A stretch of DNA of 64,000 nt, taken from NCBI GenBank assembly GCA_947504725.1, contig CANNHN010000005.1, forward strand, positions 37,704-101,703, read 5' to 3'. Made by a program: the position numbers and the translations under genes. The notes beneath the pieces are model-generated. The model ran no database searches. It saw nothing but the letters and a program-made list of their open reading frames with translations, and had not been told where the DNA came from. This DNA comes from Bacteroidota bacterium. Its GTDB lineage: Bacteria > Bacteroidota > Bacteroidia > 2-12-FULL-35-15. How positions within the stretch are numbered: position 1 is the first letter of the stretch; each line of letters opens with the position of its first letter. This document shows positions 1,398-51,908 of this stretch, piece by piece.

Positions 1398-1435
1398 ATC
1401 CCATCCGTACAATGTATAGATGGGATTTGCTTTTT
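1398..1435 (+). terminator. Intrinsic terminator after the aminotransferase
   Basis: ATCCCATC...GATGGGAT stem followed by TTGCTTTTT. Confidence 0.7.
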
Positions 1436-1483
1436 AGCTCAAAATGGTTAATTTAGCTATCCCAAAACCTGTGGTAGGGCTAA

Positions 1484-2497
1484 ATGGATATATTAAAAAC
1501 ATATTTCTCTCTCAAAGTAAATGCTATTTTAATTCTTAGCATGTTGCTTTTCTTTGCTACTAAGTTAAGTGCTAAAAACATTGTTGGCGGACCAGAAGAC
1601 AGTGTTTCAACTTCATTAAAACCGAAAAGTTTAATCCAAAATATGAACCGTGAGCAGTTGAGCTCCTTGGTTGATTTCCTATTTGAAATGGATACTATTC
1701 CTAGGGATCTGATGAACGAAATCAATAAAGCAATTGCAACATTTAACAATGAAGACAATAAGAACGAGTCTAAAAACACAGTGACATCCATTTTTCCAGC
1801 ATCCGATATGTATGTTAGTTGGGAGATAAATAATTTATTTCCAGAAAAGGATATGCTGAAATTGAAAGGAGATACTTCTGTTGCTCTTTTGTTGAATGGT
1901 GGTGAACGAGGAGATTATTTTCATCCATTTAATGGGCCAATGACATCTGGTTTTGGCTGGAGAGATAGCGCTCAGCACAATGGTGTAGATATTGATTTAA
2001 ATAAAGGCGATAAAGTATGCGCAGCTTTTGATGGAATGGTCAGGATAGCAAAACGAAATGGTGGTTTTGGAAATGTTGTAATAGTTCGTCATTACAATGG
2101 TTTAGAAACGGTTTATGCACATCTTTCAAAATTAAAAGTAAAACCAGGTCAGGTAATTATTGCTGGGCAGGTTGTTGGATTAGGTGGCAGCACCGGTCAT
2201 TCAACGGGCTCTCATTTACACTTTGAAGTTCGATTTAAAGGTGTACCAATTAATCCTAAGTATTTAATTTCTTTCAAACAGCAACGATTATTATACGATG
2301 CAATTACAATTAAAAAAACAAAATGGGGCTTGGCGGCTTTCCCAACAGGAGGAGCTGAGCATATTGTAGAAAAGGGGGATACTGTTTTTGAACTTGCGAA
2401 AAGATATGCAACTACTACTGTTTCAATTAAAGAAATAAATGGTTTAACAGGTAGAGTAAGACTCAAACCAGGGCAGATAATTTGTATTGCTCAATAA
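1484..2497 (+). CDS. M23 family metallopeptidase with C-terminal LysM domain
   Basis: HNGVD, YAHLS and HLHFEVR zinc motifs; C-terminal HIVEKGDTVFELAKRY LysM; N-terminal signal sequence. Confidence 0.92.
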   Translation: MDILKTYFSLKVNAILILSMLLFFATKLSAKNIVGGPEDSVSTSLKPKSLIQNMNREQLSSLVDFLFEMDTIPRDLMNEINKAIATFNNEDNKNESKNTVTSIFPASDMYVSWEINNLFPEKDMLKLKGDTSVALLLNGGERGDYFHPFNGPMTSGFGWRDSAQHNGVDIDLNKGDKVCAAFDGMVRIAKRNGGFGNVVIVRHYNGLETVYAHLSKLKVKPGQVIIAGQVVGLGGSTGHSTGSHLHFEVRFKGVPINPKYLISFKQQRLLYDAITIKKTKWGLAAFPTGGAEHIVEKGDTVFELAKRYATTTVSIKEINGLTGRVRLKPGQIICIAQ

Positions 2498-2501
2498 GTA
2501 A

Positions 2502-2678
2502 TTATTCTGCATTCTTGTTCAGCTTATTTAGGCATCTCATAAAAGCATCTCTCATTCCCTCATATTGCGTTTCTCTTCCTAAGTTGCTTGTTCGATGTGC
2601 TTCATTGATAACTTCGTTTACGTGTACAATTTGCTGATTCAGCCATTGAACTACTTCTTTTAATTGTTCTGAGTTCAT
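2502..2678 (-). CDS. Small 58-aa hypothetical protein (not in the ORF track)
   Basis: Hand translation MNSEQLKEVVQWLNQQIVHVNEVINEAHRTSNLGRETQYEGMRDAFMRCLNKLNKNAE*; fills the gap convergent with the M23 gene; minus-strand TATTTTTG box at 2786-2793. Confidence 0.7.
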   Translation of the reverse strand: MNSEQLKEVVQWLNQQIVHVNEVINEAHRTSNLGRETQYEGMRDAFMRCLNKLNKNAE

Positions 2679-2793
2679 CGGTTTATAGTTTAGAGTTAAT
2701 GATTAGTACGGCAGTGTTTGTAATATAGTTTCGATAGATTATACTAAAGCCCCTTTTTTATGGATATTTGCAGTGAAATAATACACAAAAATA

Positions 2794-3441
2794 ATGTTTC
2801 GGAGCTTTGTTACACAGCTAGAGAGCCTTTTGAATAAGGAATTACCAGGAGAAAGTGCTCAGTTCTCGATGGCACCAGTTAATCGGATGCGTTTGCAAGA
2901 TATTTCTAAAGATAATTACAAACCAAAGCAAAGCGCAGTGCTCATTTTACTTTTTCCTGAAGCAAATTCAATTAAAACAATCCTCATTCAAAGAGGGAAA
3001 TATGAAGGAGTACATAGCGGTCAAATTGCTTTTCCAGGTGGACAATACGAGGAGGGTGATCTAGATCTAAAACAAACTGCTTTGCGAGAAACATTTGAAG
3101 AAATTGGAATTTCTTCCGAAAACATAAGTGTAGTGGGTTGTTTAACGGATGTGTATATCACACCAAGTAATTTTTTAGTGAAACCTTATGTTGGAATAAT
3201 GAATCAAAAGCCAAATTTCATTTTAGATTCAAATGAAGTTGCGCTTGTTATTCCAGTTGATTTATTGAGATTGAATAGCAAAGATATTCGGAAAGAAAAA
3301 TCGATTTTGCAGAGTGGTGGTTTCAAAATAAAAACCCCCTATTATGAAATAGAGGGTTTAACAGTATGGGGTGCAACAGCAATGATGATAAGTGAACTAA
3401 ATGCTGTTGTTGCTCAAATAAAAATTACTTCTTCTTATTAA
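2794..3441 (+). CDS. NUDIX CoA pyrophosphatase (NudL-like)
   Basis: HSGQIAFPGG...ALRETFEEIG Nudix box and C-terminal VWGATA. Confidence 0.9.
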   Translation: MFRSFVTQLESLLNKELPGESAQFSMAPVNRMRLQDISKDNYKPKQSAVLILLFPEANSIKTILIQRGKYEGVHSGQIAFPGGQYEEGDLDLKQTALRETFEEIGISSENISVVGCLTDVYITPSNFLVKPYVGIMNQKPNFILDSNEVALVIPVDLLRLNSKDIRKEKSILQSGGFKIKTPYYEIEGLTVWGATAMMISELNAVVAQIKITSSY

Positions 3442-9626: not shown

Positions 9627-11474
9627 ATGAAACGCTTCATACTCTCTTTCATATTCTTTTTTGTCTCGACTCTTTTTTTATACTCAGAAAACAGATATGA
9701 ATTTTCTGTTGACTTAACAAAGTGTGTGAAAGATAAATTACTTGTTGAGTTAATGACACCTAATTTGAATAGCAATGAAGTAATTTACCGACTCCCTAAA
9801 ATTGTTCCAGGCACTTATGAGATATTGAATTTTGGTCGATTTGTATCTAATTTTAAAGTATATGATAGCTTGGGAACTGAAATGGAATTTGAGAAATTGG
9901 ATGTAAATAGTTGGAAAATAATTAATGCAAAAAAAATAAAAAAACTTTCTTATGAAGTGGAAGATACTTGGGATACAGAGATTAAAGAACCGTATGTTTT
10001 TGAGCCAGGTGGAAGTAATTTTGAAGCAGGAAAAAACTTTGTTTTAAACCCTCATTGTTTATTTGGATTTTTCGAAGGTATGAAGGGCGTTCCTTATCAA
10101 ATAAATATAATACGTCCTTCTGATTTTTTTGGTGCATGTAGTTTAACAGATGTTGTATCGAAGGGGAATGTGGATACATATTCAATTGTTGATTATAAGG
10201 AACTTCAAGATGCACCTATGATGTATAATGTTCCTGATACAACAGTTTTGAACATTGGAGAAACTCAGGTTTTAATTTCAGTGTATTCGCTAAATAAAAT
10301 TTCTTCCTCAAAATTTATTTCCGAACAAATTTCAGAAATATTATTTGCTCAGGAGGAATATCTAGGAGGCGTTTTGCCAATTAAAAAATATGTGTACTTG
10401 ATTTATTTAACTTCAACAGGAGGCATTTCTGGGTCAAGTGGAGCTTTGGAGCATAGTTATTCTTCGATGTATTTTTTACCTGAGATGGATCAGAAATATT
10501 TATCTCAAACGATTCGTGATGTTTCAGCACATGAATTTTTTCACATTGTAACTCCATTGAATATTCACGCTGAACAAATCGGTGATTTTAATTTCAATGA
10601 TCCGCAGATGTCGAAACATCTTTGGTTGTATGAAGGTACTACTGAGTATGCGTCTGGTTTGGTTCAGATAAAATATGGTAACATGTCTTTGTCAGATTAT
10701 TTAAAAGTAATTGAGTCGAAAGTTTCGGGTAGTAAAGGATTTAACGATTCCATTTCTTTTACATTAATGAGTGAAGGGTGTTTAAAGCAATATAAAGATC
10801 AATATTCCAATGTTTATCAAAAAGGAGCATTGATTGGGATGTGCTTGGATATTCAATTAAGATATTTATCAAAAGGAAAATACGGATTGCAAGAATTGAT
10901 GGTTGATTTATCTAAGACATATGGTAAAAATAAATCATTTAAAGACGATGAATTGTTTGATCAAATTGTAAAATTGACTTATCCTGAGATTGGCGATTTT
11001 TTTCACAATTATGTTGAAGGCAACAAGCCTTTGCCTGTTAAAGAAATGTTAGAGTTGGTAGGAATTGGGGTTGCAGATGCTAGCGGAAACAAACAAATAT
11101 CAATCGGAGGAATTAGTATAGGATTAAACACAGCCACTAATAGATTAATGATTGTAAATACCGAAGCAATGGATGATTTTGGAAAAGCAATTGGTTATCA
11201 AGAATATGATGAGTTAATAAAATTCAATGGTAAAAAGTTGACTGTTAATAATTCTCAAGAAGTAATTGGTGGTTTTGTTCAAAATGCAAAAGAGGGGGAC
11301 GAATTGCTAGTAGTTGTAGGTAGAAGGAAGTCAGATACTTCTAAAACTAAAAAAATTAAGTTAAAAGCAAAATTATTTCCTGTTCTTCCTGCTGCTAGTA
11401 ATAATTTAATCCCATTTACAAATGCTACAGATGAACAATTGAAATTGCGTACCGACTGGATAGGAAAACATTAA
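9627..11474 (+). CDS. M61 glycyl aminopeptidase-family zinc peptidase with PDZ-like C-terminus
   Basis: GALEHSYS, SAHEFFH (HExxH), WLYEGTTEY, YQKG motifs; signal peptide. Confidence 0.9.
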   Translation: MKRFILSFIFFFVSTLFLYSENRYEFSVDLTKCVKDKLLVELMTPNLNSNEVIYRLPKIVPGTYEILNFGRFVSNFKVYDSLGTEMEFEKLDVNSWKIINAKKIKKLSYEVEDTWDTEIKEPYVFEPGGSNFEAGKNFVLNPHCLFGFFEGMKGVPYQINIIRPSDFFGACSLTDVVSKGNVDTYSIVDYKELQDAPMMYNVPDTTVLNIGETQVLISVYSLNKISSSKFISEQISEILFAQEEYLGGVLPIKKYVYLIYLTSTGGISGSSGALEHSYSSMYFLPEMDQKYLSQTIRDVSAHEFFHIVTPLNIHAEQIGDFNFNDPQMSKHLWLYEGTTEYASGLVQIKYGNMSLSDYLKVIESKVSGSKGFNDSISFTLMSEGCLKQYKDQYSNVYQKGALIGMCLDIQLRYLSKGKYGLQELMVDLSKTYGKNKSFKDDELFDQIVKLTYPEIGDFFHNYVEGNKPLPVKEMLELVGIGVADASGNKQISIGGISIGLNTATNRLMIVNTEAMDDFGKAIGYQEYDELIKFNGKKLTVNNSQEVIGGFVQNAKEGDELLVVVGRRKSDTSKTKKIKLKAKLFPVLPAASNNLIPFTNATDEQLKLRTDWIGKH

Positions 11475-41318: not shown

Positions 41319-42143
41319 ATGAAACGTATTCTATATTCATCACTTTTATTTGTTTCTGCAGTTACTGCATTAACTCTTAGTTCTTGTAAAAAAGAAGATC
41401 CAGATACGGAAACGCAATCAGCTATTGATAATAGTGTTTGCGAAGGAGAATTTACTGGAAGATTGGGAATAATCAATAGTATAGCTATCAAAGAACAAGG
41501 AGTAAAATCAATGAGAGCAATAGGTCAACCGATTATTTCATTTGTTGCCGCTGATACTCTAGATGGTTTTCCAATCACAATGTATCTTGATTATGGAACA
41601 GGAACAACAGATCCTGTTGATGGAAAAACACGAAAAGGACAAGTAACGGCAAAATTTAGTAATTCTTGGGATGCTTTAGGAACAAATGTAACGGTTAAGT
41701 TAATCAACTATTACGTTAAAACGGCTACTGGTGCTAATTTCGTTCAATATGCATGCGATAGTATAATGATTGGTCACCCTACTGCAGCAACGTTCACTAA
41801 TGATATTATTGGTGGAAAATGTGTTGCTGCTACTTGGAACCTAGAATGGTCTTGTAATAGAACTTTAACGCAAACAGCTGGTTTGGGTGATACGCTTTTA
41901 ACGAACGATGTTTATCAGTTTACAGGTAATGCAGTAGGAAAGACTCGCGAGGGTAAAGGATATACTGTAAACGTGGTTTCTCCAGTTACTAAGAGCATGT
42001 CTTGTACTTGGATTCAATCTGGTAGAATTGATTTAACGCCAGAAGGAAAAGCTACTCGTACCGTAGATTACGGAACTGGTCTTTGTGATGATCAGGCAAC
42101 GCTTACTATCAATGGTAATTCTTTTGCTTTTACCATGAATTGA
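41319..42143 (+). CDS. Uncharacterised lipoprotein, probably surface exposed
   Basis: Lipobox LSSC followed by KKED (acidic export-signal-like); DYGTG..D motifs; own -7 box TATATTTG at 41270-41277. Confidence 0.8.
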   Translation: MKRILYSSLLFVSAVTALTLSSCKKEDPDTETQSAIDNSVCEGEFTGRLGIINSIAIKEQGVKSMRAIGQPIISFVAADTLDGFPITMYLDYGTGTTDPVDGKTRKGQVTAKFSNSWDALGTNVTVKLINYYVKTATGANFVQYACDSIMIGHPTAATFTNDIIGGKCVAATWNLEWSCNRTLTQTAGLGDTLLTNDVYQFTGNAVGKTREGKGYTVNVVSPVTKSMSCTWIQSGRIDLTPEGKATRTVDYGTGLCDDQATLTINGNSFAFTMN

Positions 42144-42259: not shown

Positions 42260-42310
42260 CTTTAATTAACTAAACAGAATTGTCAGCTTTATCGATTTAA
42301 CTTAGTGTTT

Positions 42311-42856
42311 ATGATGTTAGATATTTACGATTTTTATGATAAAATGGAGCGTAATAATATTATGCTCTCTTTTAAAGGTGATATCACTTCTGAATTACTT
42401 ACCTCCATATTGCAAATAATGGAATCCAAATTGGATAATTTGCAAGAAGAACCTAAAATTAAAAAGAAAGTTTACAACGTATTGGTTGAGTGTCTTCAAA
42501 ACCTGTATCATCATATGGATGAAGTTGCTCCTGAAGAAAATGATGCTATTCGATCTGCAATCTTCATGATTGGCAAGTTGGATAATCAATACAACATTGT
42601 AACAGGAAATTATATTAAAAAAGAAAACGTAGAAGGATTAAAGAAACGTTTAGAGGATATAAATTTATTATCGAAAGAAGAATTAAAGGAATATTACAAA
42701 GCTGTTTTAAATAATGGTGAAATGTCAATGAAAGGTGGAGGTGGATTAGGAATGATTGATATCGCGCGTAAAACAGGAGAGAAATTGAATTTTAACTTTT
42801 CTCCAGTAGACGATAAATTTTCATTTTTCAGTTTAAATATTAAAATATCACAATAA
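42311..42856 (+). CDS. siaB: SiaB family protein kinase (DUF6272)
   Basis: FKGDIT.ELL, LVECLQNLYHH, TGNYI, ELKEYYK, GGGLGMIDIARKTG. Confidence 0.88.
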   Translation: MMLDIYDFYDKMERNNIMLSFKGDITSELLTSILQIMESKLDNLQEEPKIKKKVYNVLVECLQNLYHHMDEVAPEENDAIRSAIFMIGKLDNQYNIVTGNYIKKENVEGLKKRLEDINLLSKEELKEYYKAVLNNGEMSMKGGGGLGMIDIARKTGEKLNFNFSPVDDKFSFFSLNIKISQ

Positions 42857-43247: not shown

Positions 43248-43268
43248 TTTTTCTTTAAATTAATATTT

Positions 43269-43312
43269 AAAGCGAGATGAAGTGCATTGCATTTTGTCTC
43301 GCTTTGTCTTTT
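43269..43312 (+). terminator. Terminator after siaC
   Basis: AAAGCGAGA...TCTCGCTTT stem plus GTCTTTTT. Confidence 0.65.
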
Positions 43313-43421: not shown

Positions 43422-44195
43422 TTATACATTCCCCATCAAATACATTGCACTCATTGTTGGAGACGAGCTACCACCTTTCTTTTCCAATGTTACTGCAAAA
43501 GCCTGCGCCCCTACAATTGTTTTCATTTTTTGAAGAGAAGCTGAATCGCTCTTCATGTCAAATACTCCAGCATCAACAGCTTTGCCGTCAACTATAGCCC
43601 AAAGTTGATATTGTTTATCGTCTGACGGCATTGGTAAAGAATTTACATTAATGTATACGTCCTTTGTATTTTGATTCCAATATAAAGCTGCCAGTGAGGT
43701 AGGTGACATTTCCATTCCCTTTAGCATAATTTTTTTGTTTTCAGGGTGCATTAAAACAGCCATTTCTTGTGCCATTTCTCCATATGATTTTGATTGTGAT
43801 TCAAAATCGGTAGCATATTGTTCATTTTTTAAAACTATTGAAGCAATTTGTTCTTCATTGTCTTTTATATTGTTAAGTAATATAACATTGTAAATAGAGC
43901 TCCCTATTAATAATGCAATAGATGCGGCTAAGAGCCATGATCTATTTTTGTTCGGCTGGAGAGTTAAAACTGTGTTTTTAGTGAAATCTATTTCACTTTG
44001 TATTTTTTGTTTTAATGCCGAAGGAGGATTTTTAGAAGCATGACTCATTAGTGTTCCTTCAATAAGTTCAATCTCCGCTAACACTTCAGCGTGTTTTCTT
44101 GACATTGCTTCAACTTCCGCTCGTTCTTTTTCAGAAAGGAGCCCAAGTACGTAGCTTTCAATAATACCTGATGATATGTAATCTTGAATATTCAA
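43422..44195 (-). CDS. Anti-sigma factor (RskA/anti-sigma-K type)
   Basis: YISSGIIESYVLG.LS..ER.EVE, TM, P.DKQYQLWAI..GK.VDAG, FAVTLEK.GGS..PT. Confidence 0.92.
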   Translation of the reverse strand: MNIQDYISSGIIESYVLGLLSEKERAEVEAMSRKHAEVLAEIELIEGTLMSHASKNPPSALKQKIQSEIDFTKNTVLTLQPNKNRSWLLAASIALLIGSSIYNVILLNNIKDNEEQIASIVLKNEQYATDFESQSKSYGEMAQEMAVLMHPENKKIMLKGMEMSPTSLAALYWNQNTKDVYINVNSLPMPSDDKQYQLWAIVDGKAVDAGVFDMKSDSASLQKMKTIVGAQAFAVTLEKKGGSSSPTMSAMYLMGNV

Positions 44196-44196
44196 T

Positions 44197-44739
44197 TTAG
44201 TTCATTTTTTTTCTTAATTCGATTATGGCAGCCCTAACTCTTGTTTTTACAGTGCCTAAAGGTATATTCAATTCTTTTGATGTTTCTTCTTGAGTGAATC
44301 CCTTAAAGTAAATAAAATCAATTAATTTTCGATATTCTTCTTTTAATTTATGGACCTCTTCTTTTATTCCAATTGTGTCTGAATTGAATGAGACAATATT
44401 CTGTTCGTTGACTTCATAAACGGAATTATCGATGTCATGGATTTTGTTTTCTAACTTGAATTGTTTCGATCGGGAATAGTCAATTGCCGAATTTCGTGCA
44501 ATATTGAGCATCCAAGTGAATAATCTACCTTTGCTCGTGTCGTACTTTTCGATGTTTTTCCAAATTTTAATAAAAACATCTTGTAAAAGATCTTGAGCAA
44601 TTTCTTCTGCAGGTATTATTCGACTTACGATACCGTATAAAGCAGAAGAATAATTGTCGTATAAAACATTGTATGCATTTGCATCCTTGTTTTTTAATAA
44701 GGAAACTAATTCTTCTTCTGTAAAGGGGTTCTTTTTCAA
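44197..44739 (-). CDS. ECF RNA polymerase sigma-70 factor (TTG start)
   Basis: LYDNYSSALYG, DLLQDVF..IW, FTWMLNIARN.AID, LNIPLGTVKTR. Confidence 0.93.
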   Translation of the reverse strand: MKKNPFTEEELVSLLKNKDANAYNVLYDNYSSALYGIVSRIIPAEEIAQDLLQDVFIKIWKNIEKYDTSKGRLFTWMLNIARNSAIDYSRSKQFKLENKIHDIDNSVYEVNEQNIVSFNSDTIGIKEEVHKLKEEYRKLIDFIYFKGFTQEETSKELNIPLGTVKTRVRAAIIELRKKMN

Positions 44740-44806: not shown

Positions 44807-47800
44807 TTATCGTCCTTTTTTTCTGCTTAATTTACTAAACAAAATTTCTAAACCTGTGATTAATTTTTTAAGCATGTCGAAATAAAGTGTTATTGCTAAT
44901 ACTAGCGACATTCCCCAGATTACAAGAATATTTACATTATATGTATCGTAATATTTGCCAAAGAATTTTTTACGTGGCGCAAAAAAGTGCGCTCTTCCCA
45001 TATCAGAATCTACTGGATCTAAATAAATAGGGTCAATTTTTTGAACATAAGCTCCATCTAAATCCAAAATACGATAAGGCGTATTTCTATTTGTTACCAA
45101 GTCTTGTAAACTTTCATTTTCATATTCGTTTTTGTCTTTAATATATTGTAAACGAGAAACGCTATCCTTATTCATTAAGCTAACTTCTTTTTCTCTTAAA
45201 GTAGTAGCTCGTTTGAAATTGTTCAAATACACATTTCTGAGTGTGTTGTTTGTGAAGTCTCGCACCTGATTTGCAACAGTGGGGCTAAATGAGACAATAT
45301 TCAAGTTGTCAAATCCACCACATTTTAATTTCTCGTTTCCTGGTACATTTATTTCTTTGCGTATTTCATTTTGAATCATCTTTAAAGCATCTTCTACTTC
45401 TTTTCTGCTTTCTGCTTTTTTGTAATTCGATTCACAAAAATCAATTTTTTTAGCAATCTCAGTTAACCAATAATCTTTTTTGTAAGTAGCAACGTGAATT
45501 GCTTTGTCGAATTTGTATGTTTTTTTGGTGAATTTGTTGTCTTTAAATTGCTTTACTGCCAATGCTTCAAATGCCCATCTAGAAGCCATCATATCGCCAA
45601 CCAACGGCACAACACTTTGTGAGGTAATGATTGGGTTTAATTTATCGAATTTCACCATTACACCACTAAACAATAATTGTGGAATAATTAAAATAGGAAT
45701 TAATATATATATTGTAACTGCTGAATTGAAACTTGAAGAAATGTTTAATCCTAACATATTAGCAAAACAGAATGTGCTAAATAATAAAATCCAATATTGG
45801 AAAGTCATTCCTTGAATTTCTAAAACGTAATTTCCAACTAATACAAACAAAATGGCTTGTATTGATGATAAAGAAAACATGATAATTATTTTTGACCACA
45901 AGTAGCTTCCCTTACTTAAGTTTAAAAAAGATTCGCGTTTTTGAATTTTTCTGTCTCTAATAATCTCTTCTGCACTCACTGTTAGTCCAATAAATAAAGA
46001 AACTACCACAGACATAAACATATAGATAATAATGTTTTCGTTTTCACGGAATGTGTACCCTACTTTATTTGATAAATCTAGATTTACAAATTTAATGAAG
46101 TATGCAAGGATGAAAGCAAGTAAAGGTGCTTCTAAAAAATTGATAGAAATGTACTGTGTGTTTGTCATTTTCGACAAGACATCACGTGTGATAAATACTT
46201 TGAATTGTTTGAATTTATTTGGAATTCTAAATGTGCTTTCTGGAATTTCAGTAATGTTTTCAACTTCCTCAATCGATTTCTCAATCTTCTCTCTGTAATG
46301 AACGTTCCATTCTGATGGAGAAACTTTTCTGTTACGAGTTATGTTACCGTACTCGTCCAATACTTTTGATTCAATAATATTGAATACTTGTTCGGGATTT
46401 ACGTTACCACATTCTATACATTCACTTTCGTTACTGTTTACATGATTAACAACAGTTTTAAAATAGATAACAGAATCTACAGGATTGCCATAATAAATTG
46501 GATATCCACCAACATCGAGAATCATCAACTTGTCGAACATTTTAAAAATGTCTGACGATGGCTGATGGATAACTACAAAAACCAACTTGCCTTTTAAAGC
46601 AAGTTCTTTAAGTAAGTCCATAATGTTTTCTGAGTCACGAGATGACAAACCAGAAGTTGGCTCATCAACAAATAAAACAGATGGTTCACGTATTAACTCT
46701 AAAGCAATATTCAGTCGCTTACGTTGTCCCCCTGAAATTGTTTTTTCTAATGGGCTACCTACTTTTAAATCTCTTGTTTCAATTAATCCAATGCTTGTTA
46801 AAACATCAGTTACCATTTGAGTAACAACTGCGTCTGTTTTATTTCCGAAACAAAGTTTAGCATTGTAAAATAAATTTTGGAAAACGCTCAACTCCTCAAT
46901 TAATAAATCGTCCTGTGATACGTGACCAATTACTCCTTCAACTTTTGACTTTTCGGAATGTATGTTGATTCCATTGATTTTTACCGAACCACCACTCGGA
47001 ATTTCCATTCCGTTCAAAACGTTTAGTAGGGTAGATTTTCCGGCCCCTGAGCCTCCCATTATTCCTATAAGTTTTCCGGAATCTTCACTGAAATTGATAT
47101 CGCGTAAACCTAATTTCCCACCTTTAAATTTAAATTCTAAGTTTTTTACAGCAAATGATACTTTTGCTTTTGAAGTATCACTCATAAAAGAACTTAAAAT
47201 ATCACTATAATAAACAGGTTTTACTTTTGAACTTCTAAGAGATGATCCAGGAGTTAAGATGAAAACTTTTCCTTGAGTTAGTAATTGTCCATTTAGTAAA
47301 ATATCGCTTTTGCCATAATATAATAAGGCATACATATTCACACTTTGAATCCACAAAATGCGTGCTTGTCCAGTTACACCTTCAGCGTAAATATGTTTTG
47401 TTTCTTTTAAGTTGTGTGATGTTTTGTTGTCGATGATAAGAATTTGTGGTGATTCTGGAATATTCTCTATACCAGCTCTCACAAATTGCATAGAACGTTT
47501 AAACTCTTCATCATCAATGTTAAATGTTTCCGCAACCGTAGTTACGAATTCCATTTCTTGTTCAGCGATTTCAGTGTTGGAATTAATAAATTCAATTAAA
47601 CGAAGTAATACAACAACTTTTTGAACTTGCGTAAGCTCTCCATTTATTTGGGTACAAATCTTTAAAATTTTAACAGAATTAAGGGAAGTGCGTTTTGCTG
47701 TTCCATCTTTCTTTTTTGTAACTTGGTGGTGAGCTTCAAGAAATTCATCAAAAATTGCCAAGTATTGTTCAACAAGCTCTTGATTTAATTGTTGTTTTAA

Positions 47801-47899
47801 AAATGATTGTACAATTAAACGTCCATTGTCATCAATGCCATCAACTCTTGCAATAATTGCAAACATTTGCATGAGGGCCTTTAATATTCTTTCACTCAT
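44807..47899 (-). CDS. TerB-like domain + ABC ATPase + ABC-2/ABCG permease fusion with a large extracytoplasmic domain
   Basis: N-terminal helical TerB-like region; GGSGAGKS, ISGGQRKRL, FVDEPTSGL, VIHQPS (White/ABCG-like); TM block with EEIIRDR.I..RE, PQLLFSG, SRWAFEAL. Confidence 0.88.
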   Translation of the reverse strand: MSERILKALMQMFAIIARVDGIDDNGRLIVQSFLKQQLNQELVEQYLAIFDEFLEAHHQVTKKKDGTAKRTSLNSVKILKICTQINGELTQVQKVVVLLRLIEFINSNTEIAEQEMEFVTTVAETFNIDDEEFKRSMQFVRAGIENIPESPQILIIDNKTSHNLKETKHIYAEGVTGQARILWIQSVNMYALLYYGKSDILLNGQLLTQGKVFILTPGSSLRSSKVKPVYYSDILSSFMSDTSKAKVSFAVKNLEFKFKGGKLGLRDINFSEDSGKLIGIMGGSGAGKSTLLNVLNGMEIPSGGSVKINGINIHSEKSKVEGVIGHVSQDDLLIEELSVFQNLFYNAKLCFGNKTDAVVTQMVTDVLTSIGLIETRDLKVGSPLEKTISGGQRKRLNIALELIREPSVLFVDEPTSGLSSRDSENIMDLLKELALKGKLVFVVIHQPSSDIFKMFDKLMILDVGGYPIYYGNPVDSVIYFKTVVNHVNSNESECIECGNVNPEQVFNIIESKVLDEYGNITRNRKVSPSEWNVHYREKIEKSIEEVENITEIPESTFRIPNKFKQFKVFITRDVLSKMTNTQYISINFLEAPLLAFILAYFIKFVNLDLSNKVGYTFRENENIIIYMFMSVVVSLFIGLTVSAEEIIRDRKIQKRESFLNLSKGSYLWSKIIIMFSLSSIQAILFVLVGNYVLEIQGMTFQYWILLFSTFCFANMLGLNISSSFNSAVTIYILIPILIIPQLLFSGVMVKFDKLNPIITSQSVVPLVGDMMASRWAFEALAVKQFKDNKFTKKTYKFDKAIHVATYKKDYWLTEIAKKIDFCESNYKKAESRKEVEDALKMIQNEIRKEINVPGNEKLKCGGFDNLNIVSFSPTVANQVRDFTNNTLRNVYLNNFKRATTLREKEVSLMNKDSVSRLQYIKDKNEYENESLQDLVTNRNTPYRILDLDGAYVQKIDPIYLDPVDSDMGRAHFFAPRKKFFGKYYDTYNVNILVIWGMSLVLAITLYFDMLKKLITGLEILFSKLSRKKGR

Positions 47900-47925
47900 T
47901 TTGCTTTGTGATTAAGTAGTTTTAG

Positions 47926-47963
47926 AAAAAAAAGGCATTAATACCGCAGTAATTAATGCCTTT
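47926..47963 (-). terminator. Stem-loop with U-tract between the 144-aa gene and the ABC gene
   Basis: AAAGGCATTAAT...ATTAATGCCTTT 12-bp stem next to an A-tract. Confidence 0.7.
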
Positions 47964-47982
47964 CAAATAAACAGTTTGAAAA

Positions 47983-48417
47983 TTATTTTTGTTGTCTGAA
48001 GCCAATTAATAAAACGGCTCTTCCAGAGCCTTGAGCTCCACCACTTAATTTTGCTTCAACAACACAATCAAGTGTGTTAGATATGTTGAAATCCCAATAT
48101 GGAGCATTCTTAAATTCGCTATTTGTAAATAATAAATTTCTTTCTGTGTCATAAACTGAGAAAATTAAATTTCCATCTGACAAACCGCTACAAGCAGCAA
48201 TACGATATAATGTTCCACCGTAAAGTGTTGTATGGAATTCTGCAGTTTCATCTGTGTTCATTAATAAAGCTCTGTATTGTTGACCATCAGAAATAAACTT
48301 ACTTTCTAAGTGTCTTGCACATTGATTAGCAATTGTATCCGCAATTTGAGCTGATGCGCTGTTTATAGTAATGAATCCACTAACAACTAATACTATTTTT
48401 AAAATTCCTTTTTTCAT
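47983..48417 (-). CDS. Secreted hypothetical protein (144 aa)
   Basis: Signal peptide ending ASAQ; C...L...FISDGQ.YRA, YRIAAC, WDF motifs. Confidence 0.8.
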   Translation of the reverse strand: MKKGILKIVLVVSGFITINSASAQIADTIANQCARHLESKFISDGQQYRALLMNTDETAEFHTTLYGGTLYRIAACSGLSDGNLIFSVYDTERNLLFTNSEFKNAPYWDFNISNTLDCVVEAKLSGGAQGSGRAVLLIGFRQQK

Positions 48418-48469
48418 TTCTGTTATAAATTTTTATTTAACGATTGAGTAGTGTATAACTGAACCGAAA

Positions 48470-49366
48470 TTATCCTACAATTTGACTTCTAATAGATTTT
48501 ACCTTTTGAGTAATTGACTCAATTTGCTCAGGAGTGATGTTTACTTCTGATTTACTTGTGATGGTTGTTGTTTTCTTTTCAGCATCAGTAGTAGGTTTTA
48601 CATATGTATATTTAAATTCTACACCATCAAAAACGGATGATAAGTCATTTAAATTATCAATAAACTCTGTGTATTCAGGTTGACTGTAGAATTGAGTCAA
48701 TAATTTGATTAAACTTTGTAAAGAAGTTTTTTGCTCAGCGATTCTGCGCTTTACATCTTCGTTCGGCTTAGTTTTATAAACATTTGTTGCAAAGTGTAAA
48801 CTTTCTAACCATCCACCTGCAAGCACTAATCCACTTACATCGCTACGGTCGTTGTTTTTTAAATAAGCATCACTTGAGCGATAAGCAACTCCAACCAATA
48901 CCAACATTGAATCTTTATTTCCTAAATTTTTAGCAAAACGTTCAATTGTATTCGCATCAAATGCGCCTGAAACACCTAATTCATCAGCTAGTTTTTTAGC
49001 GGAATTTAAATATCCAATCGCATCCTGGTTTTGATCATAAATTGTAACATAACCTAAATCTGCGCCATAAATACCCAAGTTCAACGCTTTTGAAAAGTTG
49101 GTTGAATAATCAGAGGCTTTATTTGATGGATTCAGAATCTCTTTGCTGTATGCGGCACCGCTTCCTTTAATCAAGAATGCTGTTTGAATTGGTGAAGGGA
49201 TACTGAAAATTTCTCCATTAACATTCAAAATTGTTGTTTGCGTGCTGTCAACTGGAGGTAAAGCGTCTGGATCTTTTGCGCCATCGCTTCCACAGCCAAC
49301 TGCAAATAGTGCAGAAACCGATAGTAATAAAAAGGTTCCTCTAAATGTGATAAATTTCAATCTCAT
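48470..49366 (-). CDS. Uncharacterised helical lipoprotein (paralog of 27978-28853)
   Basis: Lipobox AVGC; IPSP, SKALNLGIYGADLGY, GGWLESL, EQK.SL; -7 box TATTTTTG at 49407-49414. Confidence 0.82.
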   Translation of the reverse strand: MRLKFITFRGTFLLLSVSALFAVGCGSDGAKDPDALPPVDSTQTTILNVNGEIFSIPSPIQTAFLIKGSGAAYSKEILNPSNKASDYSTNFSKALNLGIYGADLGYVTIYDQNQDAIGYLNSAKKLADELGVSGAFDANTIERFAKNLGNKDSMLVLVGVAYRSSDAYLKNNDRSDVSGLVLAGGWLESLHFATNVYKTKPNEDVKRRIAEQKTSLQSLIKLLTQFYSQPEYTEFIDNLNDLSSVFDGVEFKYTYVKPTTDAEKKTTTITSKSEVNITPEQIESITQKVKSIRSQIVG

Positions 49367-49698: not shown

Positions 49699-50592
49699 CT
49701 ATTGAATTATGAATTTTCCTTTAGATAGTATGCTGTTGAAGCTATTTACTTGATAGATGTAATTGCCTTTTGATAGAGTGCCTTCCTCTATTATTACTTT
49801 GTTGCTAGTCAGATTCCCGATTTCTATCACTTTTTTACCCGACATATCAAATATGCTTACAATTGCCGACTCTAACTGCTCAAAATTAGTATCTATTACT
49901 AAAGTTGCAGAACCTGTAAATGGATTTGGGAAAACGGTGGATGATAACAATGAGTTTGCATTTTCTATAATCGACATAGGTGTTTCAGGTATGTTGATTC
50001 TGTCGATATACAAAGTTGGTAGCTCCCAAGTAGAGTCGTTCCACATATAATATTTGCTAGAATTGAACATAATAATGATAGAATCAGGCGTTACTCCTGG
50101 CATTAAGTCGTTGATGTTTACTGTAAACGAAGTATAGCTTGCTGTTGCAGGCAAAGTTTTTACCGAATAAGCAACAGTATCGCGCGACATCGTCAAGGTA
50201 TTGTAACGTTTTAAAACAACTGTAACTTCTGCAGAATCTCCTGTGCCCTGATCGTTGTATTTATAAAACCCTGAAAATGTAGTAGGTTTTGAAGTAAAAG
50301 GTGTTCCTGATTCCATAAAACTGCCATAATCCAAAGGAGGTTGACCATTTACCATAACTCCTGGAGCAATTCCGCAGGCAAACCATCCTTGAATTTTTGT
50401 TGCGTATGTACCTTGGAAAGCATCTGTAGTTTGTTTTACAGTATTGCAATAAAATGGCCACCAGTTAGTAGGAACAGTATCTGGCGAATAAGAACTTGTA
50501 GTAGTCCAACTTTCAAACCCCGGGTTCGATAGTGTTTGTCAATTCATACTTAAGCCTGCTAAAAGTAAGAATGCAATTAGTGATTTTCTCAT
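49699..50592 (-). pseudogene. T9SS type A cargo protein (PCMD-like domain + CTD) interrupted by an in-frame TGA
   Basis: MRKSLIAFLLLAGLSMN*(TGA 50541-50539)QTLSNPGFESW... continues in frame into the track ORF 50355; CTD VFPNPF...IFDMSGK...LSKGNYIY...GKFIIQ; -7 box TACATTTG at 50622-50629. Confidence 0.8.
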
Positions 50593-50708
50593 TATATCTG
50601 TTTTTAAGAATTAATATGATACAAATGTAAATCCAACCATTTGATAAGCGTTTGTACAAAAAAAGGTGATAATGGTACTTTTTATGGCAATTGGCTATCT
50701 TTGCACAA

Positions 50709-51908
50709 ATGAAGGACGAAAACGACATAAAGATGATTGCCAAAACCAATTTTGGTTTGGAGGAATTATTATCACAAGAATTACAACGACTAGGTGCAAA
50801 AAATGTAGAAATACACAATCGTGCCGTTAGTTTTACGGGCGACAAAGGTTTTATGTATAAAGCCAATTTATGTTGTAGAGTGGCTCTAAGAATTTTAGTT
50901 CCGTTTAAATCGTTTAAAGTAAGTGACGAAAAATCATTGTATGTAGGAATGCAATCTATCAACTGGGAAGATTACATGGAAGTAACAGATACAATTGCAA
51001 TCGATACAGTTTTAAGTTCAGAATTATTTACACACTCGCAATACATTTCGCAAAAAGCAAAAGATGCAATTGTGGATCAGTTTAGAGCAAAACATGGCGA
51101 ACGTCCTTCCGTGGATTTGGATAGACCAACGTTGAGAATTAATCTTCACATAGTTGGTGATACATGCACAGTTGCTTTGGATAGCTCAGGAGAATCCTTA
51201 CACAAACGTGGTTATAGAGATAAAACAAATTTAGCTCCTATCAATGAGGTGCTCGCTGCTGGATTGGTTTTGCTAACGGGTTGGGACAAGCGCACAAATT
51301 TTATTGATCCGATGTGTGGCTCTGGAACTATTTTAATTGAAGCGGCATTGATTGCAAATAATATTCCCGCAGGATACTTTCGTGAAGAGTTTGGATTTCA
51401 ACGTTGGAATAAATTTATGCCTTATGAGGAAGAATTATGGAACACCATTTTTGATTCCGCAGTAAATAAAATTACGAATCACGAACAAAAAATTTTAGGT
51501 GGTGAACTTTCTCCTAACGTTGCAAAAAAGGCAAAAGAAAATATCAAGTTCGCAAAGGTAGATGATATTGTTTCTATCAAAAATGTAGACATGAAAGATT
51601 TTGAAGTTCCTGCTGGAAGAGGTGTTGTTATTATTAATCCACCATACGGTGAACGTATGGATAAGGATAATATTGATGAGCTTTATAAAATGATGGGCGA
51701 TACGTTCAAGAAAAATTTTGCAGGTTACGATTGTTGGATACTAAGTTCAAACATGGAAGCATTCAAACATGTTGGATTGCGTCCTTCACGAAAAATCCAA
51801 TTGTATAACGGACCATTAGAATGTCGTTTTATGAAATTTGAAATGTATCAAGGGACGAAAAAGATTCATAAGATGGAAGGAAGAGAACAGAATAATAATA
51901 AAGAATAA
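50709..51908 (+). CDS. THUMP-domain RNA methyltransferase (RlmL/Trm14-like)
   Basis: GLEELL..EL, DSSGESLHKRGYR, AP.NEVLAAG, DPMCGSGTI.IEAA, NPPYGER; -7 box TATCTTTG at 50696-50703 supports ATG 50709. Confidence 0.92.
   Translation: MKDENDIKMIAKTNFGLEELLSQELQRLGAKNVEIHNRAVSFTGDKGFMYKANLCCRVALRILVPFKSFKVSDEKSLYVGMQSINWEDYMEVTDTIAIDTVLSSELFTHSQYISQKAKDAIVDQFRAKHGERPSVDLDRPTLRINLHIVGDTCTVALDSSGESLHKRGYRDKTNLAPINEVLAAGLVLLTGWDKRTNFIDPMCGSGTILIEAALIANNIPAGYFREEFGFQRWNKFMPYEEELWNTIFDSAVNKITNHEQKILGGELSPNVAKKAKENIKFAKVDDIVSIKNVDMKDFEVPAGRGVVIINPPYGERMDKDNIDELYKMMGDTFKKNFAGYDCWILSSNMEAFKHVGLRPSRKIQLYNGPLECRFMKFEMYQGTKKIHKMEGREQNNNKE

Follow-up and report, generated by a model that had tools for sequence, protein, structure and literature searches.

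Does Sia-type phosphoprotein control extend beyond cyclic di-GMP signalling to an ABC exporter of the bacterial envelope? The question is raised by a 64,000-nucleotide stretch of contig CANNHN010000005.1 from a Bacteroidota bacterium (assembly GCA_947504725.1; hereafter the window). Here an operon of three consecutive open reading frames on the reverse strand (44807-49366, with intergenic gaps of 52 and 83 bp) encodes a lipoprotein, a small secreted protein and a 1030-residue ABC transporter, and a four-gene module on the forward strand that ends in siaB and siaC converges on it. A sequence-only reading of this DNA had suggested that a possible FHA-like linker would make the transporter a candidate effector of the Sia switch. 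We show here that siaBC and the transporter gene are associated in the genomes of many Bacteroidota lineages, and a functional link between them is likely. We put at about one in two the probability that the transporter is the output of the SiaB/SiaC switch, an interpretation by analogy in which unphosphorylated SiaC would dock on the TerB/FHA-like head at the N-terminus of the transporter. SiaC (DUF1987) proteins are widespread, and the only effector characterized for them is the Pseudomonas diguanylate cyclase SiaD. The analysis names a widely conserved adjacent effector candidate in a phylum without a described effector, and Sia-type control outside cyclic di-GMP signalling becomes a directly testable question.

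In Pseudomonas aeruginosa, unphosphorylated SiaC binds the helical stalk of SiaD through residues Y65, N67, T68 and S69; SiaB abolishes this binding by phosphorylating T68, a modification that SiaA reverses (PMC8457831). The authors of the SiaC-SiaD structure suggested that DUF1987 proteins might modulate adjacent proteins generally (PMC8457831). The window SiaC keeps the Y65-F-N67-T68-S69 series in alignment, with T68 lying within YFNTSS. Both switch proteins are placed at the level of the family: SiaB passes the family model NF038262 (172 bits against a cut-off of 85) and does not reach the equivalog NF038264 (98.7 against 225), and SiaC passes PF09345 and does not reach the equivalog NF038265 (103.8 against 150). 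The module also encodes an 1100-residue SiaA-like phosphatase, with a SpoIIE/PP2C domain at residues 900-1100 and a periplasmic portion made of 13 Reg_prop repeats and a Y_Y_Y domain, an arrangement reminiscent of the periplasmic regions of hybrid two-component sensors in Bacteroidetes. A scan of ten genes from 37.9 to 50.4 kb gave no GGDEF match of the kind that would mark a SiaD-type diguanylate cyclase effector. The end of siaC lies 1560 bp from the stop codon of the transporter gene, in line with the distance of about 1.6 kb given by the sequence-only reading.

To see how general this neighborhood is, we surveyed 80 metagenome loci (L094-L173) chosen only by a close SiaC (73-98% identity to that of the window), and counted adjacency only where the downstream flank reached 1 kb or more. 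In class 1, the type found in the window, SiaB is 67-99% identical to the window protein and is often preceded by the SiaA-like phosphatase and a 274-residue lipoprotein, which together with siaBC make up a four-gene module conserved in these loci. In class 2, SiaB is mostly 38-53% identical to that of the window, and 21 of 27 loci carry, directly after siaC, a convergent full-length homologue of the transporter that includes the TerB/FHA-like head. The gap between the two genes is below 1 kb in 20 of these 21 loci, and often only 6-250 bp; no PP2C phosphatase gene is present in the flanks of the transporter-adjacent class-2 loci. The class-2 transporters are 46-66% identical to one another, and the adjacent loci, clustered at 70% identity, fall into at least eight lineages by SiaB and 18 by transporter, with the named cluster members (all under generic names) coming from Marinilabiliales, Salinivirgaceae and other Bacteroidetes metagenome-assembled genomes. 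Across these loci the siaB-siaC/transporter core is constant while the outer flanks differ. This is the genomic co-occurrence with siaBC on which the sequence-only reading had made its proposal depend; it is found tail to tail and in many lineages in class 2, and in only 2 of 27 loci in the class of the window itself.

Within the 80 loci the identity to the window is 73-98% for SiaC, against 38-99% for the adjacent SiaB and 31-80% for the adjacent transporter. This strong conservation of SiaC fits a small protein constrained by several binding partners. We propose the transporter as the effector of the switch because the window SiaC keeps Y65, N67, T68 and S69, and because SiaC is the most conserved of the locus proteins. 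In two of these loci, L141 (4777-5175) and L143 (a matching open reading frame), inspection by eye picks out a second, divergent SiaC-like gene of 132-134 residues a few kb upstream of siaBC. Beyond the transporter gene, L158 (14712-15396, and L155 by open-reading-frame cluster) has a gene for a STAS-type anti-sigma antagonist, which in L158 also has an Hpt-like neighbor, again as judged by eye.

What kind of protein would such a switch control? The 1030-residue protein is an ABCG-fold half-transporter, which presumably acts as a homodimer. Pfam matches ABC_tran at residues 265-416 (E 4.6e-30) and ABC2_membrane (PF01061) at residues 565-756 (E 4.6e-17), and the nucleotide-binding domain is thus N-terminal to the transmembrane domain in a single polypeptide. 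The nucleotide-binding motifs are complete (Walker A GGSGAGKST, signature ISGGQRKR, Walker B LFVDEPTSGL, H-loop VIHQPS), and G282, K288, S389-G391, D412-E413 and H445 are invariant across 50 family members. Hydropathy peaks fall at residues 583-610, 620-647, 667-700 and 720-752, and a last hydrophobic segment at 986-1011. An AlphaFold model of the full-length protein (predicted local distance difference test, pLDDT, 87.8; predicted template-modelling score, pTM, 0.78) matches ABCG5/G8, ABCG2, ABCG1 and plant ABCG16 and ABCG25 in Foldseek with target-normalized template-modelling (TM) scores of 0.77-0.80 and E-values down to 2.6e-25, and sequence matches in the PDB are to ABCG1, ABCG5/8, ABCG2 and Cdr1. 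The White/ABCG subfamily model TIGR00955 aligns with residues 240-798 (E 7.8e-73), and at 246 bits against a curated cut-off of 736 we reject membership of the White/pigment-precursor permease subfamily: the protein is ABCG-like without being a member.

At least 120 protein clusters are 69-96% identical to the full-length transporter, and the three-gene order is retained down to about 55% transporter identity, from which we conclude that the genes are real. Searched against 1.8 billion representative proteins, the first 250 residues match 802 clusters at E<=1e-3; the best 150 of these 802 are proteins of about 1000 residues or shorter partial sequences, matched nearly always from residue 1, which shows that the head is a fixed part of the transporter family. 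Database names are generic ('ABC-type multidrug transport system ATPase subunit'), and our literature search found no paper on the family or on its association with SiaBC. The family is an unstudied bacterial ABCG-fold group, with an N-terminal module represented by about 800 clusters at 50% identity.

Each element described by the sequence-only reading is in place in the 1030-residue protein, including the linker (YYGKSDILLNGQLL...TPGSSLR), ISGGQRKRL and VIHQPS, and its ABCG-like core with the nucleotide-binding domain first agrees with the order of the Pfam domains, the complete motifs and the structural matches. The long extracytoplasmic insert it described is modelled with high confidence as about 195 residues between transmembrane helices 5 and 6 (hydrophobic segments 720-752 and 986-1011), made up of helices 795-825, 829-850, 873-909 and 913-936 and a small beta element at 944-985 (regional pLDDT about 90). 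The insert should project into the periplasm, since by ABCG topology its position is that of extracellular loop 3.

The two proteins encoded upstream of the transporter are exported and conserved, and with no family match for either of them and no paper on the transporter family, the sequence-only description of the operon as an uncharacterized export system holds. The lipobox cysteine (Cys25) of the lipoprotein is invariant in 18 orthologues that are 37-72% identical, as are the motifs F-S-x-P-S-P, Y-G-A-D-L-G-Y, G-G-W-x-E and R-x-x-E-Q-K. The 144-residue protein is 45-74% identical among 18 orthologues, with motifs SDGQxYR, AEF, PYWDF and SG...GF; its cysteines are for the most part conserved and are probably paired in disulfides. 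Neither protein, searched together with its 18 orthologues, has a significant Pfam, NCBIfam or PDB-profile match. The gene for the small protein always adjoins that for the lipoprotein. When 86 transporter sequences are arranged in a tree, nearly all clades have the pair upstream of the transporter, that of Crocinitomix catalasitica (ATCC 23190, L085) among them. The two proteins are most likely periplasmic or outer-membrane partners of the transporter. The pair is its own unit, usually but not always travelling with the transporter, because locus L173 carries a second pair (1407-2801, forward strand) without an adjacent transporter; that pair is followed by a convergent 937-residue open reading frame with an N-terminus that looks UvrA-like by eye. 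In L158, L155 and L143 the usual pair appears, by eye, to be replaced directly upstream of the transporter, and the replacement genes in L158 look like those for a PepSY-TM-like protein and a 157-residue lipoprotein.

An inserted periplasmic stalk and two exported partners invite the idea of a mechanotransmitter in the manner of FtsEX, MacB or LolCDE, in which ATP hydrolysis would move the stalk to act on the lipoprotein and the small protein, with no inner-membrane substrate. The confidently modelled helical insert, the two conserved periplasmic partners and the ability of the pair to exist without the transporter all speak for such a device; nevertheless, the transmembrane domain closely matches those of true ABCG transporters, including the helices that line the substrate cavity, and many family members have no partner genes nearby. 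We therefore regard this option as a good deal less probable than its opposite. The option bears solely on the output and does not conflict with Sia control. A role as an ordinary efflux pump for drugs or toxins, suggested by the source annotations and by the presence of ABCG2 and Cdr1 among the structural and sequence matches, is very improbable, given that these annotations are generic and automatic, that the protein combines a fixed regulatory head with a large insert and dedicated exported partners, and that its single-copy conservation in a housekeeping context is atypical of drug pumps. The cargo may be a hydrophobic molecule or a component of the envelope that is passed across the periplasm. 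This is suggested by the ABCG fold, whose other members transport sterols, lipids and further hydrophobic compounds, and by the stalk and the lipoprotein partner.

The structural context in which SiaC might act is the head, which we modelled with AlphaFold as residues 1-252 using 45 diverse homologues in the alignment (pLDDT 89, pTM 0.85). Its first portion is a bundle of seven helices. The window protein matches TerB (PF05099) at residues 8-136 with E 3.6e-4, slightly under the gathering score (21.2-23.8 bits against 24.4), and 30 of the 45 diverse family members match the same model, the best with E 1.3e-9, in agreement with the TerB-like N-terminus of the sequence-only reading. The bundle also matches PDB 2h5n (PG1108 from Porphyromonas gingivalis) in Foldseek with a TM-score of 0.54.

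The bundle is followed by a beta-domain with strands at residues 153-157, 168-171, 177-184, 189-196, 212-215 and 220-222 (pLDDT about 95). After it come a conserved P-I-Y-Y-S-D-I motif and a helix (231-242) that links the head to the nucleotide-binding domain. In a Foldseek search of the head model against the PDB the top 50 matches are nearly all FHA domains (probability 0.95-1.0), amongst them those of CEP170, Rad53 FHA1, MEK1, KIF1A/KIF13, EssC, DgcB, RNF8 and TIFA. These matches are weak, with E-values of 8e-3 to 0.2 and target-normalized TM-scores of 0.40-0.55 over 85-105 aligned columns, and the query is itself a predicted model. Searches of PDB chains with the head, by its sequence alone and by a profile of 45 members, recovered no FHA domain; the matches, to a zincin-like protein (E 1.4) and staphostatin (E 0.02), were at the level of chance. 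Conserved columns in the 45-member alignment are G177 (35/45), Y194 (36/45), G196 (39/45), N203 (42/45), G204 (36/45) and G218 (44/45), and position 222 is basic in 42 of 45 members. Our reading of the model is that the beta-domain is a minimal, degenerate FHA-like sandwich, as the sequence-only reading had supposed in noting an NG and no GR or SxxH; structure prediction and fold search of residues 1-250 gave a weak list dominated by FHA domains rather than pointing to some other fold.

One way for such a head to meet the switch would be for the FHA-like domain to bind phospho-T68 of SiaC, so that phospho-SiaC recruits or activates the exporter. The fold, the presence of the acceptor T68 and the conserved gene neighborhood are compatible with this, and Rv1747 provides a precedent as an FHA-bearing exporter of the same domain order that is positively regulated by Ser/Thr phosphorylation (PMC3138270). 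The residues that would be needed are, however, missing: nothing in the 45-member alignment corresponds to the phosphopeptide-contacting arginine of GR or to the serine and histidine of SxxH, the 158-167 loop in which the GR would be expected is hypervariable in length and sequence, and none of the 45 members matches the Pfam FHA profile (PF00498) at E<=1. The conserved L-N-G, which contains N203-G204, is most likely the structural 'vNG' turn of FHA domains rather than the peptide-contacting asparagine, an assignment drawn from the Pfam FHA consensus. Canonical phosphothreonine recognition by the domain is unlikely, because the GR and SxxH residues are absent. Furthermore, phosphorylation of T68 abolishes effector binding in the sole studied system (PMC8457831), the opposite of what this mechanism calls for. 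We judge it improbable. The sequence-only proposal of an exporter under Sia control through an FHA domain is accordingly divided: the candidate effector is strengthened by the adjacency in class 2, and the phosphothreonine-binding mechanism is not supported by the residues.

Our preferred reading, that the transporter is the switch output, follows the logic of SiaC and SiaD. Unphosphorylated SiaC would dock on the TerB/FHA-like head through Y65, N67, T68 and S69, and docking would alter the ATPase or transport activity of the transporter. SiaB would then phosphorylate T68 and so release SiaC, which would be restored by a PP2C phosphatase, in the window the 1100-residue SiaA-like periplasmic sensor. 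More specifically, it is a tentative proposal, which we hold at less than even odds, that Bacteroidota SiaB and SiaC bypass cyclic di-GMP and directly gate an envelope exporter of the ABCG fold, with SiaC docking on a TerB/pseudo-FHA head according to its phosphorylation state. If true, this would be the first STAS-like phosphoprotein to control an ABC transporter, and would define a new envelope export route with a periplasmic stalk and two novel partners. The family, in which a regulatory head of a new kind is combined with a large stalk in the periplasm and with two exported partners, may serve envelope biogenesis in Bacteroidota.

Several observations weigh against the transporter being the output of the switch. 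The class to which the window belongs has a transporter nearby in only the 2 of 27 loci already mentioned. The convergent orientation means that siaBC and the transporter are not co-transcribed. RlmL, GuaA and an S41 peptidase recur near a subset of the loci, and part of the signal could therefore be inherited synteny. A survey centered on the transporter (80 species-representative genome loci and 5 metagenome loci) places siaBC no farther than 10 kb from it in just 10 or so of the 80 genome loci. Four distant members of the family stand alone, with neither partner genes close by nor any Sia gene in the surrounding 8-10 kb. The lipoprotein/small-protein pair is itself missing in several clades, and is once present without the transporter. 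Finally, the FHA-like label comes from a predicted structure with marginal Foldseek E-values, and the sequence methods applied (Pfam, PDB) detect no FHA domain.

In a rival reading the exporter would be independent of Sia, the adjacency being a relic of ancestral gene order and the head being autoinhibitory or sensing a ligand such as a metal, a lipid or the state of the membrane. Sia genes are absent from the 8-10 kb around the transporter in most close relatives of the window and in each of the four distant members sampled, the orientation is convergent, and housekeeping genes such as RlmL recur nearby. TerB domains are also found in other membrane-associated stress proteins. Indeed, on the transporter-centered survey alone the adjacency looked like decaying synteny, and it was the SiaC-centered scan that changed this reading: 21 of the 27 class-2 loci keep the pair, across at least 18 lineages of the transporter and 8 of SiaB, despite changing flanks, which speaks against a passive relic. 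Two further arrangements argue in the same direction. In L073 (13814-14215) and L074 (13815-14213; both forward strand) an orphan SiaC paralogue is encoded co-directionally with the transporter, 28 bp downstream of it; it is 33% identical to the window SiaC, retains the acceptor threonine and has no SiaB nearby. In L062, siaBC has no adjoining phosphatase gene, and indeed no functionally related neighbor other than the transporter operon, the stop codon of which is 167 bp away. We therefore consider independence from Sia unlikely, with perhaps a minority share of the probability. As a separate observation in L073, the open reading frame directly upstream of the transporter (9923-10651) starts, by eye, like an LptB-type ABC ATPase.

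The history of the arrangement can be partly reconstructed. In the transporter-centered survey siaBC is near the transporter in the clade of the window (L006, L012, L013, L015 and L028) and in deep branches (L041, L056 and L062), at distances of 0.15-7.8 kb that shorten to 150-240 bp in L056 and L062; the class-1 locus L103 has the complete seven-gene cluster with a gap of 215 bp. Because L056, L062 and L103 bridge both classes, we read the tail-to-tail arrangement of siaBC and the transporter as ancestral, and as loosened in the lineage of the window by insertion of a sigma/anti-sigma pair. This pair, an extracytoplasmic function (ECF) sigma factor and its anti-sigma factor, lies on the transporter strand and begins 67 bp past the transporter stop codon with no terminator predicted in the gap, and from this layout may be co-transcribed with the transporter. 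It is found near the transporter only in L006, L009 and L021; we therefore reject it as a part of the conserved system, to which it probably does not belong, and regard it as a lineage-specific insertion between the transporter and siaC. A gene for an RlmL-type (THUMP) methyltransferase is placed beyond the lipoprotein gene in the window (50691-51908, forward strand), whereas in 7 of the 13 long class-2 loci it directly precedes siaB, which suggests that the transporter block has been inverted inside a syntenic region of some age.

Table 1. Features of the locus, with positions counted from the first nucleotide of the window; residue numbers refer to the transporter.
Feature	Position	Strand	Basis or remark
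SiaA-like sensor phosphatase, 1100 residues	37917..41219	+	Reg_prop propellers, Y_Y_Y, transmembrane segment, PP2C/SpoIIE
Lipoprotein, 274 residues, no known family	41319..42143	+	Between phosphatase gene and siaB
SiaB-family protein kinase	42305..42856	+	NF038262, 172 bits (cut-off 85); PF19788 (DUF6272), E 2e-43
SiaC-family phosphoprotein, 126 residues	42867..43247	+	PF09345, E 1.4e-45
Hairpin, 18-bp stem then T-run	43268..43306	+	Directly 3' of siaC
RskA-type anti-sigma factor	43422..44195	-	Pfam/NCBIfam matches
ECF sigma factor, SigK-like	44197..44739	-	Pfam/NCBIfam matches
ABC half-transporter, 1030 residues	44807..47899	-	TerB-like, FHA-like, nucleotide-binding and transmembrane domains with periplasmic insert, C-terminal helix
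Transmembrane helix 6 and basic C-terminal cytoplasmic helix, residues 986-1030	44810..44944	-	AlphaFold, hydropathy
Insert of about 195 residues, residues 791-985	44945..45529	-	AlphaFold; position of ABCG extracellular loop 3
Elbow helix, transmembrane helices 1-5 and re-entrant helices, residues 562-790	45530..46216	-	PF01061, hydropathy, Foldseek
Nucleotide-binding domain, residues 248-483	46451..47158	-	Walker A, signature, Walker B and H-loop all present
Predicted degenerate FHA-like beta-sandwich, residues 150-242	47174..47452	-	AlphaFold and Foldseek
TerB-like cytoplasmic seven-helix bundle, residues 3-141	47477..47893	-	Pfam, AlphaFold, Foldseek
Secreted/periplasmic protein, 144 residues	47983..48417	-	Operon gene 2; cleavable signal peptide ending ...NSASA-Q
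Lipoprotein, 298 residues	48470..49366	-	Operon gene 1; open reading frame, signal peptide and lipobox ...ALFAVG-C25

The hairpin that follows siaC is likely a terminator separating the two convergent transcription units, as judged from its stem and T-run. A scan for sigma-70 promoters returned 30 sites against 35.8 expected, using a consensus that does not cover Bacteroidota promoters. The G+C content of the window is 30-36%, and its closest relatives are uncultured Bacteroidia. Between the exporter operon and the divergent RlmL-PFK genes lies a 218-residue open reading frame (49699-50355, reverse strand) that matches the C-terminal sorting domain of type IX secretion (Por_Secre_tail, E 5.7e-9) and, in part, PCMD; it may be the cut-off end of a longer gene. 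On Bacteroidota metagenome sequence, two genes for PF01289 (thiol-activated/cholesterol-dependent cytolysin) proteins are present a few kb downstream of the transporter in each of L001 (15857-16984 and 20324-21445) and L003 (8869-9996 and 13336-14580), beside a CUB-domain protein with a type IX sorting signal.

Amongst characterized systems, the closest in its regulatory genes is SiaABCD of P. aeruginosa (PMC8457831; bioRxiv 10.1101/674879), which shares with the present locus the SiaB-family kinase, the Y65/N67/T68/S69 face of SiaC and a PP2C phosphatase. The logic of a phosphoprotein modulating an adjacent effector would also be shared. The differences lie at both ends of the pathway. In place of a GGDEF effector, of which there is none among the scanned genes, the neighbor is a convergent ABC transporter that is not co-transcribed with the switch, and the phosphatase has a Reg_prop/Y_Y_Y periplasmic sensor, whilst many loci have no phosphatase gene nearby.

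The closest counterpart of the transporter itself is Rv1747 of Mycobacterium tuberculosis, which has two FHA domains before its nucleotide-binding and transmembrane domains and is regulated by the kinase PknF (PMC3138270). The two proteins have in common the order of head, nucleotide-binding domain and ABC-2/ABCG-type transmembrane domain and genetic linkage to a Ser/Thr phospho-signalling gene, and would also share the FHA-type fold that is predicted for the head of the transporter. In the Bacteroidota protein, by contrast, there is one degenerate FHA-like domain without phosphothreonine-binding residues and with a TerB-like bundle in front of it, the kinase is of the SiaB type and not Hanks-type like PknF, and a large periplasmic insert and two exported partners are added in a Gram-negative host. 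Since the FHA-like domain fails the residue test and the neighboring kinase is SiaB-type, we reject membership of an Rv1747-type family, although the two may work similarly.

The eukaryotic ABCG half-transporters (ABCG1, ABCG2, ABCG5/G8 and plant ABCG16 and ABCG25) share the position of the nucleotide-binding domain before the transmembrane domain, the fold and the VIHQPS motif at 20-25% sequence identity, whereas the present protein has about 245 extra N-terminal residues and a loop 3 grown to about 195 helical residues. The FHA domains of EssC are not known to have the canonical phosphothreonine-binding residues, which are absent from the FHA-like domain of the transporter as well. EssC, the membrane ATPase of type VII secretion (PDB 5fwh), would also be alike in carrying an FHA-type domain at its cytoplasmic N-terminus, the one matched by Foldseek, but its ATPase is of the FtsK/SpoIIIE kind rather than ABC, and the two have no detectable sequence relationship. 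The system thus resembles both the Sia partner switch and Rv1747, and is a member of neither.

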